DNA of 64,000 bases from the IMG/VR virus record IMGVR_UViG_3300047557_002876, positions 7,158-71,157 of that record. The stretch is one strand, 5' to 3'. Every line of letters begins with the position of its first letter. Positions within the stretch are counted from its first letter, which is position 1. Positions 1-48,200 of the stretch are shown here, piece after piece. A program made the position numbers and the translations under genes. The DNA comes from a virus. The notes under the pieces are model-generated. The model was given only the letters and a program-made list of their open reading frames with translations. It had not been told where the DNA came from and searched no databases.

Positions 1-3000
1 TGGTCTTACCATAAGAGAAGAGGGTTTTATTGTTGGTTCTGCAAATAGTATATCTCAATTAGATTTTGTTGGACCAAACATAACTGCCACTGCTTCTGGG
101 AATATTTCTACGGTAACTGTTGCCGATTATGTTTCTAATGCAGGAGTTGCAACTGGATTAACAACAACTTCTAATGTCAATACATCTGGTATTATTACTG
201 CAGCATCATTTTCTGGATCTGGGGTAAATCTAACATCTTTAAACGCCTCTAATTTATCTTCCGGTGTAGTTCCTTCTGATAGAATTACTGCATCTAGCGG
301 AGATTTTACGGTAGGAAATGATCTTTATGTAAACGGCAATTTGAGTATTGGTGGTACTTCAGTTATACTGAATGCCGCCACTTTAGTTATTAATGATAAA
401 GATATTGTTGTTGGTTATACTACAGATATTAATGGTAATGATGTTTCTAATGATGTAACTGCCAATCATGGTGGTATTTCTGTTGCATCGACAGTTGGAT
501 CTCCCATTATCAATATACCACTTCAAGTAGGTGTTAATAGTAGACCTTCCACATATAAGCAAATAATGTGGATTAAGGAAGGTAATTACTCGGGAATGGG
601 CACGGATGCTTGGGTATTTAATTATGCAGTTTCAATTGGTAATACCTCATCAGTCAAAAATAACAGCAGATTGACTGTTGGAACTGGGTTTACTGTATTT
701 GATAATTATGTAGAATTGATAGATATTCGATCTAGAAATATTTTTAGTTCTGGTATTATAACAGCTTCTTCTTTTGATGGAAATTCTACTACAGCAACTT
801 ATGCTTCTAATGCTGGTGTAGCAACTTACGCTTCTAATGCTGGAATTTCTACGAGTGTTATTGGTGGAATTTCTTCAGTATCTCAACTTAGAGTATCTGG
901 GATTTCTACATTGGGATTTGTAACTGCAACTAGTTTATATTCTGTTGGAGTTATCACTGCCTCATCTTTTGTTCCTTCTAGTGGATTTATTAAAGCCCCA
1001 GATGGAACTAATTCATTTTACATTTATGGTGGAACTGGAAATGTAGCATTCCAAGGAACAATAGGTGCTAGTAAAATTAATAATGCATCTGGTTATCTTG
1101 CAATTGATTTTTCTAGTTCTACTACTCCCACGGTTTTAGTTCCTAATAATCTTGGAGTCACTGGAATTGTTACAGTAAGTGATAAACTTGGTATAGGAAC
1201 GACAGATCCAACATCAAAAATTCATGTTATTGGTGATGGTTTGTTTACGGGCATTATTACTGCTAACTCATTTAGTGGAAATGCGACAAGTGCCAATTAT
1301 GCTCAGAATGCTGGCGTGGCAACTTATGCGTCTAACTCTGGAGTAGCGACCTACGCTTCAACTGCAGGTGTAGCAACAGGTTTAACAACCACTTCTAGTG
1401 TTAATACTACTGGCATTATTACTGCTTTAAGATTCATTGGAGATGGATCTCAGTTAACAGGTCTCGTTGCTCCCAGTTCTGGAATTGGTATCAATTCTGA
1501 TGGAATATCAGTTGGAGTTGCTGCAACAATACTTAACTTTTCTAGTGGTATTTTAGTAACTCCAATTTCCTCTGGTATTGCTACGATTTCTGTAATAACT
1601 GGTAATTATGCGTCCAATGCTGGAGTAGCAACTTATGCAGATTCGAGTGGCATTTCTACTTATGCTTCAACTGCAGGTGTAGCAACTTATGCGTCCAATG
1701 CTGGAGTAGCGACCTACGCTTCAACATCAGGTATTGCTACTTATGCTTCAACTGCAGGTGTAGCAACCTATACACCTAATGCTGGAATAGCAACTTATGC
1801 AGATTCAAGTGGCATTTCTACTTATGCACCTAATGCTGGAGTAGCAACTTATGCAACTAGTGCTGGTATTGCTACTTATGCACCTAATGCTGGAGTAGCG
1901 ACTTACGCTTCAACATCAGGTATTGCTACTTATGCTTCAACTGCAGGTGTAGCAACCTATACACCTAATGCTGGAATAGCAACCTATACACCTAATGCTG
2001 GAGTAGCAACCTATGCTTCAACATCAGGTATTGCTACTTATGCAACTAGTGCTGGAGTAGCGACCTACGCTTCAACATCAGGTATTGCTACTTATGCAAC
2101 TAGTGCTGGTATTGCTACTTATGCACCCAATGCTGGTCTCTCTACAGCACTTAAAAATTCAAGAACTTTTGAAATTACCGGGGATATCGTTGCATCACCA
2201 GTAAGTTTTGATGGAACTGGTAATGTATCTTTAGCGGCAACAATTCAACCAAATTCTGTTGCTCTTGGTGGAGATACAACTGGAGATTACATCCAATCAA
2301 TTTCTGGAACTGCAAATCAAATTACAGTAACTGGAGGAACTGGTGAAGGATCAACCCCTGTCATTTCTATTCCATCAAATCCAACATTACCTGGAAATGT
2401 AACAATTGCGAATGATCTTCAAGTCAATAATAATTTAAATGTAACTGGAAATATTACTGTTGGAGGAACAACTGGTTATCTAATTGTTCAAGATTTTAAA
2501 GTCAGTGATGCTGATATTATTGTAGGATTTACTACCGATGCATTTGGGCAAGATGTCTCTACTGATACTACTGCAAATCATGGTGGTATTGCTGTTGCAT
2601 CTACTGAAGGTAGTCCATTAGTTGATCTTGTAAATGTTGCAATTGGAGAAATAAATCCCACAACATATAAGAAAATTATGTGGTTCAAGTCTGGCGCTTT
2701 TGCCGGACTGAATACCGATGCTTGGTTATTTAATTATGGTGTTGGTATTGGAAGCACTCAATTTCCATCAGGGACAAGATTGGCAGCGGGGTCAGTTCAA
2801 TTTACTGAAAATGATTTAGCAGTTGTAAGGAATATCAATGCTTCTGGCATTTCAACTTTGGGATCGGTTCAAATATCTTCTGGTATTGTCACCGCAACTT
2901 CTGGTGTTGTAACATATTATGGTGATGGATCTAAATTAACCGGAATAACTGTTGAATCTTTGGGTGCAATTAGTGGGATCACAGTTAGAGAAGAAAATTC

Positions 3001-4873
3001 TATTGTTGGAACTGCAGGAAGTATTTCCTCTATCAATTTTGTTGGTCCAAATGTTACTGCTACTGCAGCAGGTTCTGAAGCAACTATTACTATTGCAGAT
3101 TATGTATCTTTAAGTGGAGTATCTACCTATGCTTCAACAGCAGGTGTAGCGACTTATGCACCTAATGCTGGAGTAGCAACTTATTCTGATACTGCAGGAG
3201 TATCTACAAGGGTTTCTGGTGGTACAGCATCAATTACTCAACTTAGTGTTTCTGGTGTTTCTACAGTTGGGTTATTAACAGCAACGAATATTGGTATAGG
3301 AACTGATAATGCATCTTCACCACTTTATGTTGTGGGTGATACATTTATTACTGGAATTTTAACTGCAAATAGAATTTTCAGTAATGTTTATGGTGAGTTT
3401 ACTGGAGGTGGTATTACTGGAACTGATATAGTTGGAACTGCATTAAGTATTTCTGGAATTTCAACTTTTAGTAGCGGACCAGTATTAATTGGATCAGTAG
3501 CACAAACTGGAACCGTATCTCAATTGCTTCAGGTAACTGGTGGTGCTTATATTTCAACCAGTACTGGTATAGGAATCACTAATCCATCACAACTCTTACA
3601 TGTTGAAGGTAACGCTAGAATTAGTGGCGCAATTTACGATTCTACAAATTCTGCAGGAATTTCGGGGCAAGTTTTACAGTCAACTGAAACTGGTACGCAA
3701 TGGACTACTCCTGCTAGTGGTGGTGGAAGTGGGATCGCTGCTAAATTTGATACAAATATTGATAATGTCTTTTATGTAACACCAACTGGCACACTAGATA
3801 GAGTTGGAGTTGGAACTACAACGACACAAATTACATCATTCCCTTCAACATCTGGTCTTGATTATATCGTTCATTCTATTCACGTAACTAACATATCGAA
3901 TGGTGATGCTGAAATTACAGCAGCATTTGACCTTGATGCTTTAAAAGTTCCAGCAGTTGTAAGTGCTGGAACATCTGGTATTCATACTTGCAGAGTTTCA
4001 AGTGCAAGTAGTATTACCGTTGGCATGGCGTTTACAGGAACTAATGTTGATTTTAATACACTAGTAACTGATGTTTCTGGAACTGTAATATTCTTAAGTA
4101 AACCTCTTCTTGGACCTATGTCTGGAACAGGATTCTTTACACCAGTATCGAAAGTTGTATCTAGACTTCCAGTTCCTGTTGGATCTGCTGTTGAAATAAT
4201 GAAACAACCATTTGTTTTATACCCAAGTGACAGTGTTCGTGTACAAGCGACTGGGTTAGGAACAGTTGGCGTTGCCCTTAGCACAACTGCATCTGCACCA
4301 GTTGGATTTGCAACAATTGGTGTTTCTACTTTTTCTGGAATCGCTGCGGGACAACTAGTTGTTGGATCTGGAATTGCTACAAATACTTACGTTGGTGTTG
4401 GTTATACGCCAGGTACATTGGTTGTACCGATCACTAAGGCAGTAAGATCTGCTTTAAGTGCTACTCCTGTTCAATTTATTGATGCAATTGTTCCTCAAGA
4501 TGGTTCATTGCAGACTACAATTGTTTATCAGGCAACAACAGATACTGCATATTTAAATGGAAGTAGTAGAGGAGTTGGTGTTGGAACTACAGCAACAGTT
4601 TATTATGGGACTGGTAATACTTATCCTTCTGTGGTACAATCAATTAGAGTTTCAAACATTAGTGATTCTGGTGATTATCCAGTTTGGGTTGGAATTGGAA
4701 ACTCTGATACAATCTTTACCTACTTAGCCTATAACTTAATTGTTCCTAAAAATTCAACGATTGAATTATGTGAAGCACCAAAACGATTAGGAATAGGTCA
4801 ATCAATTTTTGCATTCTCAGATACATTAAACTCAATAGAAATACAAATCGCAGGAAAACAAAAGATTCAATAA
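1..4873 (+). CDS. Large tail fibre / virion structural protein, 5' truncated by the window
   Basis: The frame is open from nt 2 (GLTIREEGFIVGS...), upstream of the listed start at 341. It is G/S/T-rich with GIGTT motifs, AGVATYA repeats and an internally duplicated ANHGGI...TYK.IMW..DAW.FNY module. Confidence 0.8.
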   Translation, partial: GLTIREEGFIVGSANSISQLDFVGPNITATASGNISTVTVADYVSNAGVATGLTTTSNVNTSGIITAASFSGSGVNLTSLNASNLSSGVVPSDRITASSGDFTVGNDLYVNGNLSIGGTSVILNAATLVINDKDIVVGYTTDINGNDVSNDVTANHGGISVASTVGSPIINIPLQVGVNSRPSTYKQIMWIKEGNYSGMGTDAWVFNYAVSIGNTSSVKNNSRLTVGTGFTVFDNYVELIDIRSRNIFSSGIITASSFDGNSTTATYASNAGVATYASNAGISTSVIGGISSVSQLRVSGISTLGFVTATSLYSVGVITASSFVPSSGFIKAPDGTNSFYIYGGTGNVAFQGTIGASKINNASGYLAIDFSSSTTPTVLVPNNLGVTGIVTVSDKLGIGTTDPTSKIHVIGDGLFTGIITANSFSGNATSANYAQNAGVATYASNSGVATYASTAGVATGLTTTSSVNTTGIITALRFIGDGSQLTGLVAPSSGIGINSDGISVGVAATILNFSSGILVTPISSGIATISVITGNYASNAGVATYADSSGISTYASTAGVATYASNAGVATYASTSGIATYASTAGVATYTPNAGIATYADSSGISTYAPNAGVATYATSAGIATYAPNAGVATYASTSGIATYASTAGVATYTPNAGIATYTPNAGVATYASTSGIATYATSAGVATYASTSGIATYATSAGIATYAPNAGLSTALKNSRTFEITGDIVASPVSFDGTGNVSLAATIQPNSVALGGDTTGDYIQSISGTANQITVTGGTGEGSTPVISIPSNPTLPGNVTIANDLQVNNNLNVTGNITVGGTTGYLIVQDFKVSDADIIVGFTTDAFGQDVSTDTTANHGGIAVASTEGSPLVDLVNVAIGEINPTTYKKIMWFKSGAFAGLNTDAWLFNYGVGIGSTQFPSGTRLAAGSVQFTENDLAVVRNINASGISTLGSVQISSGIVTATSGVVTYYGDGSKLTGITVESLGAISGITVREENSIVGTAGSISSINFVGPNVTATAAGSEATITIADYVSLSGVSTYASTAGVATYAPNAGVATYSDTAGVSTRVSGGTASITQLSVSGVSTVGLLTATNIGIGTDNASSPLYVVGDTFITGILTANRIFSNVYGEFTGGGITGTDIVGTALSISGISTFSSGPVLIGSVAQTGTVSQLLQVTGGAYISTSTGIGITNPSQLLHVEGNARISGAIYDSTNSAGISGQVLQSTETGTQWTTPASGGGSGIAAKFDTNIDNVFYVTPTGTLDRVGVGTTTTQITSFPSTSGLDYIVHSIHVTNISNGDAEITAAFDLDALKVPAVVSAGTSGIHTCRVSSASSITVGMAFTGTNVDFNTLVTDVSGTVIFLSKPLLGPMSGTGFFTPVSKVVSRLPVPVGSAVEIMKQPFVLYPSDSVRVQATGLGTVGVALSTTASAPVGFATIGVSTFSGIAAGQLVVGSGIATNTYVGVGYTPGTLVVPITKAVRSALSATPVQFIDAIVPQDGSLQTTIVYQATTDTAYLNGSSRGVGVGTTATVYYGTGNTYPSVVQSIRVSNISDSGDYPVWVGIGNSDTIFTYLAYNLIVPKNSTIELCEAPKRLGIGQSIFAFSDTLNSIEIQIAGKQKIQ
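1607..2140 (+). repeat. About 19-20 tandem 27-nt (9-aa) coding repeats, consensus YAxxAG(V/I)AT
   Basis: Recurring gctggagtagcaacttatgc / ggtattgctacttatgc units, visible directly. Confidence 0.9.
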
Positions 4874-16456: not shown

Positions 16457-16673
16457 TTTGGTATTTGGTTGTTTTTTAACTATCCTATTTCTTATAGTAG
16501 GTCTTGTTACAGGTTGGGTTGCTAGAGAGTATATGATGAATTATCAAGATAAACCAAAACTTCACCCTGAATTTTTTGATAATAATGGAAATGTTATTCC
16601 AGATGAAGTTTTAGCAATTAGTTTCAATCCAGATTATTTTGATGATGATGAACTTGAAGATGATGAAGATTAA
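16443..16673 (+). CDS. Small membrane protein (single TM, acidic tail)
   Basis: N-terminal hydrophobic helix, HPEFFD.NGN motif, D/E-rich end. Confidence 0.7.
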   Translation: MLATSLVFGCFLTILFLIVGLVTGWVAREYMMNYQDKPKLHPEFFDNNGNVIPDEVLAISFNPDYFDDDELEDDED

Positions 16674-17727: not shown

Positions 17728-17743
17728 TGTATCCTATTTTACA
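17728..17743 (+). promoter_or_regulatory. NtcA-binding site (TGTA-N8-TACA), probably repressive
   Basis: tGTAtcctatttTACa, 13 nt upstream of a TAN3T -10 (TAAATT, 17756-17761) and 25 nt upstream of the riboswitch. Confidence 0.6.
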
Positions 17744-17767
17744 AAAAAACTTTTATAAATTTATATA

Positions 17768-17863
17768 CGTTCATCGCTTATAGCGACGGAAGTAAGCCGA
17801 CGCGGAACGGATCGTTCATTCGCTATTTCGAAATAGCGAACGCAAACGCCGACTGAAGGAACG
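17768..17863 (+). ncRNA. Tandem glutamine riboswitch aptamers (glnA / Downstream-peptide type)
   Basis: Two units, 17768-17809 and 17813-17863, each CGTTCA-hairpin-ACG(G/C)AA..GCCGAC..GGAACG with a closing CGTTC/GAACG stem, directly 5' of a YRG-peptide ORF. Confidence 0.8.
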
Positions 17864-17894
17864 CAAATTTACTTTTAGTAAAGGAGCAAACCTA

Positions 17895-18023
17895 ATGTCT
17901 CAAGTAGTATATCGTGGTGTCCCATACGACACCCAAGTTCGTCGTCAACAACAGGTTCAACAACAACCTCAACAATACAACGAAACCTATCGTGGTGTTA
18001 AGTTTGTAAAGGAGGTAAAGTGA
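17895..18023 (+). CDS. DUF4278-like 'downstream peptide' (42 aa, two YRG motifs)
   Basis: MSQVVYRGVPYDTQVRRQQQVQQQPQQYNETYRGVKFVKEVK, with SD AAAGGAG at 17880-17886. Confidence 0.8.
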   Translation: MSQVVYRGVPYDTQVRRQQQVQQQPQQYNETYRGVKFVKEVK

Positions 18024-18118
18024 TGAAAAAACTCAATGTTCTTCAACTTATTAAAGAGCAAAAGCAAAAAGAAAGTCGTCGTCATAAAGCACTTCTTATA
18101 AACGCAGGAGCAAAATAA
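18023..18118 (+). CDS. 31-aa basic peptide
   Basis: MKKLNVLQLIKEQKQKESRRHKALLINAGAK; TGATG overlap with the previous ORF and an AGGAGG SD. Confidence 0.65.
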   Translation: MKKLNVLQLIKEQKQKESRRHKALLINAGAK

Positions 18119-18201
18119 TGTTAGTTCTTGCACAAATCACAGTTGGATCTGCCGCTTTAATTGCACTTCTATCATTGTATATTCAGTGGATTTACAAATA
18201 A
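18118..18201 (+). CDS. 27-aa single-TM peptide
   Basis: MLVLAQITVGSAALIALLSLYIQWIYK; TAATG overlap and an AGGAG SD. Confidence 0.6.
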   Translation: MLVLAQITVGSAALIALLSLYIQWIYK

Positions 18202-18211
18202 ATTTGATTTT

Positions 18212-18240
18212 AGGGAAGATTGACTTCTTCCCTTTTTTTG
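18212..18240 (+). terminator. Rho-independent terminator with an overlapping sigma70 promoter (TTGACT 18220, 17 nt, TAAAAT 18243)
   Basis: agggaaga-ttgact-tcttccct followed by a T run. Confidence 0.75.
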
Positions 18241-18269
18241 TGTAAAATGTTGAGAGAGAACTATGAGGT

Positions 18270-18428
18270 ATGGACAGGGAAAAACTAAAACTTATTGTTC
18301 GTAATCTTGAGTTGCTTGTAGATTCTCTGAAAGCGGAAGTCTATTCTGATGCTAAAGCATACAAGTATGATGACATTAAACCAAAATACCTTGATTACGA
18401 CGAAATCTTTGAAGAGGACAATGACTAG
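18270..18428 (+). CDS. Conserved cyanophage hypothetical protein (52 aa), absent from the ORF track
   Basis: MDREKLKLIVRNLELLVDSLKAEVYSD...DYDEIFEEDND. Confidence 0.7.
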   Translation: MDREKLKLIVRNLELLVDSLKAEVYSDAKAYKYDDIKPKYLDYDEIFEEDND

Positions 18429-47939: not shown

Positions 47940-48011
47940 GGGAGCATAGCTTAATGGTCAGAGCGGGCCCCTTATAAGGGCTTAGTCTGGGTTCAACTCC
48001 CAGTGTTCCCA
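47940..48011 (+). tRNA. trnI: tRNA-Ile (anticodon UAU)
   Basis: Acceptor GGGAGCA/TGTTCCC, anticodon arm GGCCC-CTTATAA-GGGCT, T-arm CTGGG-TTCAACT-CCCAG; no encoded CCA. Confidence 0.85.
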
Positions 48012-48013
48012 TC

Positions 48014-48086
48014 GCTCCTTTAGCAATCTGGTGAATGCAGCGAACTCATAATTCGCCTGAGGCGTGTTCGATCCACGCAAGGAGCA
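48014..48086 (+). tRNA. trnM: tRNA-Met (anticodon CAU; Ile2 not excluded)
   Basis: Acceptor GCTCCTT/AAGGAGC, anticodon arm GCGAA-CTCATAA-TTCGC, T-loop TTCGATC. Confidence 0.85.
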
Positions 48087-48087
48087 C

Positions 48088-48120
48088 TTGACTATTATAA
48101 TTCTTTAAGTTATAATAGTC
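48088..48120 (+). promoter_or_regulatory. sigma70 promoter for tRNA-Leu, embedded in an inverted repeat
   Basis: TTGACT-17-TATAAT; arms gactattataa / ttataatagtc. Confidence 0.7.
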
Positions 48121-48125
48121 TTATT

Positions 48126-48200
48126 GGCGGTGTAGCCCAATTGGCAGCAGGCACTCGACTTAAAATCGACACAGTGCGGGTTCGAATCCCGCCACCGCTA
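48126..48200 (+). tRNA. trnL: tRNA-Leu (anticodon UAA), short variable arm
   Basis: Acceptor GGCGGTG/CACCGCT, anticodon arm TCGA-CTTAAAA-TCGA, T-arm GCGGG-TTCGAAT-CCCGC. Confidence 0.8.

Follow-up and report, generated by a model that had tools for sequence, protein, structure and literature searches.

How might a virus of cyanobacteria find out whether its host is rich in nitrogen? Cyanophages are known for carrying host-derived metabolic genes, while their sensing of the nutrient state is much less clear. We addressed this question for positions 17728..18240 of a 64,000-nucleotide (nt) stretch of viral DNA ("the window"), which belongs to a 71-kb IMG/VR virus record (IMGVR_UViG_3300047557_002876). 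The segment encodes a glutamine-I riboswitch whose two cores are joined by a shared, covarying helix; it begins with a palindrome of the NtcA type and continues, downstream of the riboswitch, with three very small overlapping genes. We consider it likely that a freshwater T4-like cyanophage (family Kyanoviridae) carries this segment as a self-contained cassette, upstream of thyX. Judging from their sequences, the products are probably a glutamine-rich peptide similar to DUF4278, a basic helix, and a membrane peptide. With such a cassette, the virus would be able to read the host's glutamine directly and, via the NtcA-type box, its 2-oxoglutarate.

An initial annotation of this DNA had listed a box, a -10 element, two folds closed by CGTTC/GAACG, three open reading frames (ORFs) with overlapping ends and Shine-Dalgarno sites, and a terminator. 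We confirmed each of these in the sequence, and together they form one promoter-to-terminator unit. The elements upstream of the first gene are:

17728..17743, no strand assigned: NtcA-type palindrome TGTA-N8-TACA, TGTATCCTATTTTACA, with its GTA-N8-TAC core at 17729-17742
17754..17761, plus strand: -10-like element TATAAATT, which contains TAAATT (TAN3T) at 17756-17761 and TATAAAT at 17754-17760
17768..17863, plus strand: glutamine-I riboswitch doublet (glnA RNA, RF01739), with core 1 at 17768-17809 and core 2 at 17813-17863
17795..17802, plus strand: strand X, AGCCGACG, which pairs with 17847-17854
17805..17817, plus strand: junction GAACG-GAT-CGTTC, made of the 3' strand of P1 of core 1 and the 5' strand of P1 of core 2, or an alternative hairpin
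17847..17854, plus strand: strand Y, CGCCGACT, which pairs with 17795-17802
17868..17886, plus strand: linker hairpin TTTACT/AGTAAA (17868-17873 with 17877-17882), which abuts the Shine-Dalgarno site of ORF1 (AAGGAG, 17881-17886)

We compared the window to 124 other loci, for a total of 125: 120 viral contigs, from among the matches listed, that have the 16-base junction of the two cores in common, and four isolates. In 87 of the 125 loci (85 of them distinct), the 5' strand of core 1 is within 90 nt of the junction. The other 38 loci, which lack this strand, were set aside.

Is the leader a glutamine riboswitch? The fold of core 2 (17811-17867) matches the Rfam model RF01739 at 35.5 bits (cmscan), compared to a gathering score of 35. 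Core 1 scored 23.5 bits over 17768-17809 and 32.6 bits over 17766-17813 in a genome-wide run, so it is below the cut-off when considered alone. Both cores have P1 (CGUUC/GAACG) and a P2 hairpin. In our alignment of 37 distinct compact doublets (alignment A3), P2 of core 1 (17774-17777 with 17783-17786) covaries in 4 of 4 pairs, and P2' of core 2 (17819-17827 with 17832-17840) covaries in 8 of 9 pairs. Overall, 94.2% of all cells are paired, compared to 84.5% in shuffled alignments, and 0 of 500 shuffles reach the observed value. The suggestion that these folds are glutamine aptamers is therefore borne out by the Rfam match of core 2 and by the covariation of P2 and P2', with the caveat that core 1 does not reach the Rfam threshold.

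The initial annotation also described the two aptamers as independent and in tandem, and this part of it fails, as a covarying helix between strands X and Y interlocks the two cores. Across the 37 doublets, 80.9% of cells in X:Y are paired (74.3% in shuffles) and the covariation score is 0.172 (0.092 in shuffles); for both measures, 0 of 500 shuffles reach the observed value. If the strands are slid relative to each other, just 6.7-35.6% of cells are paired. The terminal pair is GC in 13 rows, UA in 9, and AU in 3, and is never unpaired. We could parse 117 of the 124 junction loci, which gave 19 distinct combinations of X and Y, and the terminal pair is kept in 19 of 19. Furthermore, X and Y have been shortened jointly, either by 3 nt each (AGTCG with CGACT) or by 2 nt each (GGACGG with CCGCCC).

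The content of the cores also bears on whether they are separate sensors. Core 1 has ACGGAAGUA and lacks GAAG and the 3' strand of P3. Core 2 has GAAGGAACG, lacks the 5' strand of P3, and has ACGCAAA where ACGGAAGUA would be expected. Taken together, ACGGAAGUA (only in core 1), GAAGGAACG (only in core 2), and X:Y in the role of P3 make up one full consensus junction. If the aptamers were independent, then each should be complete and have its own expression platform. Instead, parts are missing from both, X:Y covaries, and only a single linker with a single Shine-Dalgarno site is present. The short variants (X = AGTCG or GGTCG) cannot form a local P3 hairpin at all.

In spite of this, the cores could be side-by-side glutamine sensors, as in an ordinary pseudo-cooperative tandem, with X:Y as a tertiary contact at most. 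Tandem glnA RNAs were noted by Weinberg 2010 (PMC2864571), and the pseudo-cooperative arrangements in Sherlock 2022 (PMC9481103) include 157 doublets and 4 triplets of this riboswitch class. Also, Rfam scores each core in linear order, and the strands of P1 fit either pairing. Given the missing parts, the joint deletions, and the single expression platform, we find this explanation doubtful.

Our preferred explanation, with the two cores interlocked, leads to a nested fold. The first CGUUC would pair with the last GAACG, and X:Y would stand in for P3, which would rebuild the canonical glnA junction, CGGAAGUA-P3-GAAGGAACG. Within it, GGAACG-GAU-CGUUC at the junction would form an inner hairpin and close the second, degenerate core. 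This fold is based on the Rfam consensus and on nearest-neighbor energies. For 17767-17865, the energies are -21.5 kcal/mol for the nested fold and -16.7 kcal/mol for the side-by-side fold, so the nested fold is 4.8 kcal/mol lower. The unconstrained minimum is -27.5 kcal/mol and also includes the outer P1 and the junction hairpin, which is present in the minimum-free-energy folds. The interlocked architecture also accounts for the low scores from standard models, which place the cores at the threshold or under it.

Several observations do not sit well with our interpretation. The Rfam scores are marginal, as core 1 is sub-threshold and core 2 exceeds the cut-off by only 0.5 bit. The P1 strands are invariant across the 37 doublets, so covariation cannot choose between the nested and the side-by-side pairing. 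And two mismatches recur in X:Y: one is C.A, seen in 27 of 37 rows, and the other is A.C, seen in 21 of the 26 rows that have letters there.

As both copies of GAACG are possible partners of the first CGUUC, the RNA might switch between the nested and the side-by-side folds. This raises the tentative idea that the sensor is a single two-core switch, with a canonical glnA junction around a circularly permuted one, which would respond to glutamine with a sharp threshold as it flips, and which would control a set of effectors that reprogram nitrogen metabolism. If so, the soluble pair of peptides and the membrane peptide would reprogram the host's nitrogen uptake or assimilation in nitrogen-rich cells only. 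More broadly, the interlocked architecture would be a new and testable way to build a riboswitch from known parts. Like the known tandem glutamine riboswitches, the leader has two RF01739-like units, head to tail, in front of one gene (PMC2864571, PMC9481103). Unlike in those tandems, neither unit has all of the consensus parts, a covarying helix joins both, and the linker and the Shine-Dalgarno site are not duplicated. In what we covered of the tandem glnA literature (PMC2864571 and PMC9481103), no helix between aptamers is described.

In relatives of this locus, the hairpin loops of the cores hold entire small genes (for example, at L001:1875-2042 and L002:1299-1451, and in many of L005-L124). 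Among the 124 junction loci, inserts of at least 150 nt are found in core 1 in 34 and in core 2 in 57; both of the window's cores are compact. The insert in core 2 encodes a conserved protein of about 50 amino acids that ends with ..C.IDAKAD and is annotated as a hypothetical coding sequence in Synechococcus phages S-SRM01 and DSL-LC02.

Where is this cassette found? Among isolates, the closest is S-SRM01, a freshwater phage of Synechococcus; a 1.3-kb query aligned to it over 66% of its length with 73% identity, and the order of genes up to thymidylate synthase is shared with the window. The cassette is adjacent to thymidylate synthase in both S-SRM01 and S-PM2. The same cassette is present in S-PM2, DSL-LC02, and S-CREM1, and only in S-CREM1 is the RNA annotated. 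The cassette is widespread, as the exact junction motif is found in at least 120 viral contigs. The window's own stretch is present in metagenomes from freshwater, reservoirs, estuaries, and groundwater (11 studies). None of the sequencing runs from those 11 studies that contain the stretch is an RNA run, which counts against our preferred explanation. We also scanned genome contigs for 15 bases of the junction, and found only chance matches. The sole match that is labeled as a cyanobacterium (L129) lies in GC-rich coding DNA and does not match the glnA model, and RF01739 was found in 0 of 151 genomes (that of L129 and 150 others of its phylum).

Does the virus sense 2-oxoglutarate as well as glutamine? 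A palindrome of the form GTA-N8-TAC, as expected for an NtcA-repressed promoter, is present at 17729-17742. Within the window, such sites are over-represented (26 sites, compared to 12.1 expected; 0 of 100 shuffles reach 26), and we considered whether they form an NtcA regulon. We rejected this idea: 24 of the 26 sites lie inside ORFs of at least 80 amino acids, several of them in repeated coding sequence, and the only ones outside are the cassette's box and a site at 16497. For instance, identical copies of TGTAGCAACCTATACA are at 1759-1774 and 1948-1963, 189 nt apart, within a long ORF (341-4873), and this coding repeat inflates the number of NtcA-like sites. As most of the sites are within long ORFs, a single site is not significant by count.

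The significance of the box comes instead from its conservation in related loci. In the 110 nt upstream of core 1, 64 of the 85 distinct loci have an exact GTA-N8-TAC, and 78 have one if a single mismatch is allowed. The background rate in the remainder of these loci is 0.0003 per position, or 0.029 expected per stretch. In the related loci that were listed, the GTA and TAC columns have the highest information content, and the interior N8 is variable. The spacing is conserved too. In the window, 13 nt separate the last base of TAC (17742) from TAAATT (17756-17761); a TA-rich hexamer (TAnAwA) is found at this distance in 47 of the 64 loci with exact boxes, and in both of the promoter forms that we describe next. 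So the box and its spacing, which the initial annotation had reported for the window, are preserved in homologous loci.

Those 64 loci have two forms of promoter. In the short form (12 loci, including the window), the segment with TATAAT is absent, and 24-31 nt lie between the end of the box and CGTTCA, with which the RNA-like part begins (at 17768 in the window). In the long form (52 loci), the box is followed by 8 nt, TTGACT, 17 nt, TATAAT, 7 nt, and CGTTCA. For the window, transcription is predicted to start at about 17766-17768, at the first strand of the aptamer, from a promoter with a -10 element only. If it starts at about 17767 (a predicted start, 7 nt after the -10-like element), then the box is centered at around -32, and this palindrome would occupy the promoter's -35 region. 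In gifA and gifB, the repressing NtcA sites are centered at -30.5 and -7.5, and the corresponding site in Anabaena is at -28.5 (PMC6316151). By analogy with gifA and gifB, NtcA that is activated by 2-oxoglutarate would block the promoter in nitrogen-starved hosts. Similarly, an IF17-like gene of Prochlorococcus has an NtcA site over its start, and the same logic as for gifB was proposed for it (PMC6212724).

For the long form, if the transcript starts at the base before CGTTCA, then the box is centered at about -50.5, which differs from the canonical position for activation (-41.5) and also lies outside the core promoter. This weighs against repression by NtcA, as does the window's -10 element, which can also be read as a T4 late-type TATAAAT. 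So, given the predicted start, the position that the initial annotation assigned to a repressor would hold for the window's short form (around -32), and not for the 52 long-form loci, where the box is near -50.5 and the promoter is of the sigma-70 type. Overall, repression by NtcA fits the window's short promoter, by analogy, and the majority form allows other explanations.

One of those is that the palindrome does not serve a repressor: it could be the site of an upstream activator or tuner of a sigma-70 promoter, or of another factor, or it could have another role such as DNA bending. In the 52 long-form loci, the box is just 8 nt upstream of a consensus -35 (TTGACT-17-TATAAT), and TTGMM is at this 8-nt gap in 44 of the 64 loci. 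NtcA canonically activates from -41.5, and sites further upstream are also reported to activate (PMC6316151). Also, Sullivan 2010 took the NtcA sites of cyanophages as promoters that drive phage genes under nitrogen stress (PMC3037559). However, the short form, and with it the window, lacks the -35, and the box overlaps that region. The 13-nt gap to a TA-rich hexamer in both forms fits a unit of a box and a -10 element, as in gifA (-30.5). Activation under nitrogen stress would also oppose a riboswitch that needs high glutamine. We view a role other than repression as possible but not probable.

Alternatively, the phage's late machinery might transcribe the cassette from TATAAAT, so that the timing of infection would set transcription and the riboswitch would be the sole nitrogen input. 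The exact TATAAAT at 17754-17760 is the T4 late core that was used as the query by Sullivan 2010 (PMC3037559), and most long-form loci have TAAATA or TATATA after TTGAC. However, most relatives have a full sigma-70 promoter instead, and the short-form hexamers are not uniform (L050 and L069 have TGGTATAAT). Late transcription would also leave the conserved palindrome unexplained, and we think that it is quite improbable.

In most of the long-form loci (among L005-L124), the -10 hexamer lies in the loop of a short inverted repeat, such as GGTC-TATAAT-GACC or GTGTTAGTATTAACAC. The repeat could be a DNA operator or, given an upstream start, a 5' hairpin.

Returning to our preferred explanation, with repression by NtcA and a glutamine riboswitch: how would glutamine turn on the genes? 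There is no terminator in the window between the aptamer and ORF1, and we suspect control of translation. In the case of gifB, glutamine raises the synthesis of IF17, and the mode of action was called unclear (Klaehn 2018, PMC6212724). By analogy, glutamine binding would turn on the translation of ORF1, and ORF2 and ORF3 would be translated by coupling, via the TGATG (18021-18025) and TAATG (18116-18120) overlaps. All three ORFs have GGAG-type Shine-Dalgarno sites 7-10 nt upstream of their starts (17881-17886, 18011-18015, and 18106-18110). In about 30 of 92 distinct linkers, an anti-Shine-Dalgarno arm, CTCTTTA(A), pairs with (T)TAAGGAG, and in another group of linkers, GAAGGAA pairs with TTTCTTT. 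A difficulty for translational control is that the window's 6-bp linker hairpin leaves GGAG unpaired, so the Shine-Dalgarno site is not clearly sequestered.

The genes and the end of the cassette are:

17895..18023, plus strand: ORF1, 42 amino acids, a glutamine-rich YRG...YRG peptide (DUF4278-like, phrog_5049)
18023..18118, plus strand: ORF2, a basic helical peptide, MKKLNVLQLIKEQKQKE..., 31 amino acids (32 from GTG at 18020), which overlaps ORF1
18118..18201, plus strand: ORF3, 27 amino acids, with a single hydrophobic span ending in LSLYIQWIYK, which overlaps ORF2
18212..18240, plus strand: intrinsic terminator, with a stem-loop (18212-18233) and a T run; the loop carries TTGACT of the next promoter

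The initial annotation's claim of three micro-peptide genes is supported by signs of purifying selection. The ratio of nonsynonymous to synonymous polymorphism (pN/pS) is 0.14 for ORF1 (30 distinct DNAs), 0.23 for ORF2 (15 distinct DNAs), and 0.36 for ORF3 (8 distinct DNAs). For ORF3, differences are concentrated at the third codon position (74, 55, and 128 differences at the first, second, and third positions). These ratios led us to reject ORF2 or ORF3 as chance ORFs.

ORF1 matches phrog_5049 with E = 6.4e-13. It had been likened to the N-terminus of IF17, which is a DUF4278 domain. The resemblance is there (E = 6.5e-4 for Pfam's DUF4278, PF14105), and the score of 20.5 bits is under the cut-off of 25.3 bits, which counts against membership in the family. 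All 29 of the aligned relatives of ORF1 match DUF4278 with E ≤ 0.01 (the best E is 5.5e-5). ORF1 is likely a divergent relative of DUF4278, below certified membership, as judged by these profile matches. ORF1 is also very rich in glutamine (it has a QQQVQQQPQQ run) and lies under a glutamine sensor; in 8 alignment columns, Q is present in at least 90% of the 29 relatives, and one of these is invariant. The translation of ORF1 might itself depend on the supply of glutamine.

We found no match for ORF2 in Pfam, NCBIfam, or PDB (a PDB sequence search had 0 results), and no usable match in the ESM Atlas. NCBIfam had 0 matches for the five peptides that we queried. A profile search with ORF2 found 71 cluster representatives, mostly of 27-45 amino acids. 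The profile of phrog_545 matches ORF2 at positions 1-20 and ORF1 at positions 25-54, and an ORF2-like helix is fused to YRG modules in L003, L012, L025, P0103, and others. P0103 (127 amino acids) has two units of helix and YRG and scores 38.8 bits on DUF4278; with the fused 43-amino-acid relative L025 as the homology query, we found only close "hypothetical" relatives. Because the helix is naturally fused to YRG modules elsewhere, ORF1 and ORF2 probably act together. A complex prediction for ORF1 and ORF2 gave no verdict (a score of 0.00, in a run without controls). ORF3 has no Pfam or PHROG family, and tblastn against phages gave no match for it, possibly due to the low-complexity filter. Other contigs also have related membrane peptides after the operon.

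To describe the operons, we write Y for the YRG peptide, H for the helix, and TM for the membrane peptide. Among the listed loci, 71 distinct operons are complete (46 of 117 are cut by the end of the available DNA), and their layouts are:

Y alone: 27 of 71
Y-H: 17 of 71
Y and H fused: 8 of 71
Y-H-TM (includes the window): 4 of 71
Y-H-TM-Y: 2 of 71
Y-TM: 2 of 71
Y-TM-Y: 2 of 71
other layouts: 9 of 71

The helix is a separate gene in 25 of the 71 operons (plus one helix variant, in L050, that our sorter missed) and is fused in 8. A membrane-type peptide is encoded in 10 of the 71. The three-peptide architecture that was proposed for this cassette is thus present in the window and is a minority variant, found in 6 of 71 complete operons. 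In four contigs (L053, L059, L063, and L074), there is a fourth coupled ORF of about 51 amino acids (MDNYKYHYDDMDKDNRPPACYQLTYRGCNYWSCY...), with a YRG motif and several cysteines, which has no Pfam match.

What might the peptides do? They are probably made only in a nitrogen-rich host. Our best guess, rather than a finding, is that they are small effectors, gated by glutamine and probably by NtcA, that act on the host's nitrogen handling. A more specific proposal is that they are a split viral analog of IF17/IF7, which would bind and inactivate the host's glutamine synthetase (GS) in nitrogen-replete cells. ORF1 is similar to the N-terminus of IF17, the logic of control is as for gifB (PMC6212724), and ORF2 is a basic peptide that has many lysines and an RR pair. 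Binding of GS by IF7 depends on arginines, and specifically on three arginines in the IF7-like part (PMC6316151). However, the DUF4278 part of IF17 promotes stability and is dispensable for inactivating GS (PMC6316151), so the similarity of ORF1 gives no evidence of GS inhibition. ORF1 has just 42 amino acids, compared to 149 for IF17 (PMC7760959), and it lacks the IF7-like C-terminal extension, while ORF2 matches nothing in Pfam, NCBIfam, or PDB. Also, control of GS by inactivating factors was reported to be ruled out in the streamlined marine picocyanobacteria that carry DUF4278 genes (PMC6316151). We therefore think that inactivation of GS is unlikely. Host genes may have a similar arrangement: two neighboring genes of Synechococcus WH7803, RS10040 (DUF4278) and RS10045 (hypothetical), show joint changes when a podovirus infects (PMC7885011), so hosts may also have a two-gene DUF4278 operon. 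The three micro-proteins, including ORF3, which has no family at all, are candidate small viral regulators of the host's nitrogen metabolism, and their tight control offers an experimental handle.

The most similar known systems are gifB (IF17) of Synechocystis sp. PCC 6803 and the IF17-like DUF4278 genes of picocyanobacteria (Klaehn 2018, PMC6212724; Bolay 2018, PMC6316151). The gifB system has a GTA-N8-TAC box over the core promoter, as predicted for the window, and a type-1 glutamine (glnA) aptamer in the 5' untranslated region, followed by a gene for a small DUF4278-type protein, and the expected logic is low 2-oxoglutarate AND high glutamine (PMC6212724). Unlike gifB, the cassette is phage-borne, has two interlocked cores instead of one aptamer, and encodes a 42-amino-acid product without the IF7-like, GS-binding part, followed by two more coupled micro-ORFs. 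Also unlike gifB, most related phages have the box upstream of a full sigma-70 promoter.

Some of this was known already. NtcA-plus-riboswitch logic, and its association with DUF4278, was described in cyanobacteria (PMC6212724). NtcA sites were reported in cyanomyoviruses, with 1-16 sites per genome (Sullivan 2010, PMC3037559); that study does not mention riboswitches (0 occurrences). That glnA RNAs occur in cyanophages, as the initial annotation stated, is correct: one was annotated in S-CREM1 (PMC9964418). In that paper, the annotation is limited to the RNA (44 bits), and NtcA is never named (0 occurrences). S-CREM1 has the same box, compact doublet, and terminator as the window, and has one fused protein of YRG and helix where the window has three ORFs. 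In the literature listings and passages that we searched, we did not find the conserved phage cassette as a unit, the helix between the cores, or the families of ORF2 and ORF3.

The stem-loop and T run at the end of the cassette agree with the initial claim that a terminator closes the unit. At 18212-18248, TTGACT is in the terminator's loop and TAAAAT follows the T run at a spacing of 17 nt, so the end of the cassette overlaps the promoter of the next operon (whose ORF is at 18270). A terminator that contains TTGAC is visible in many of the related contigs. Further downstream, at 47940-48200, the window has three tRNA genes in a row (68.1, 52.5, and 56.9 bits), which is usual for T4-like cyanophages.

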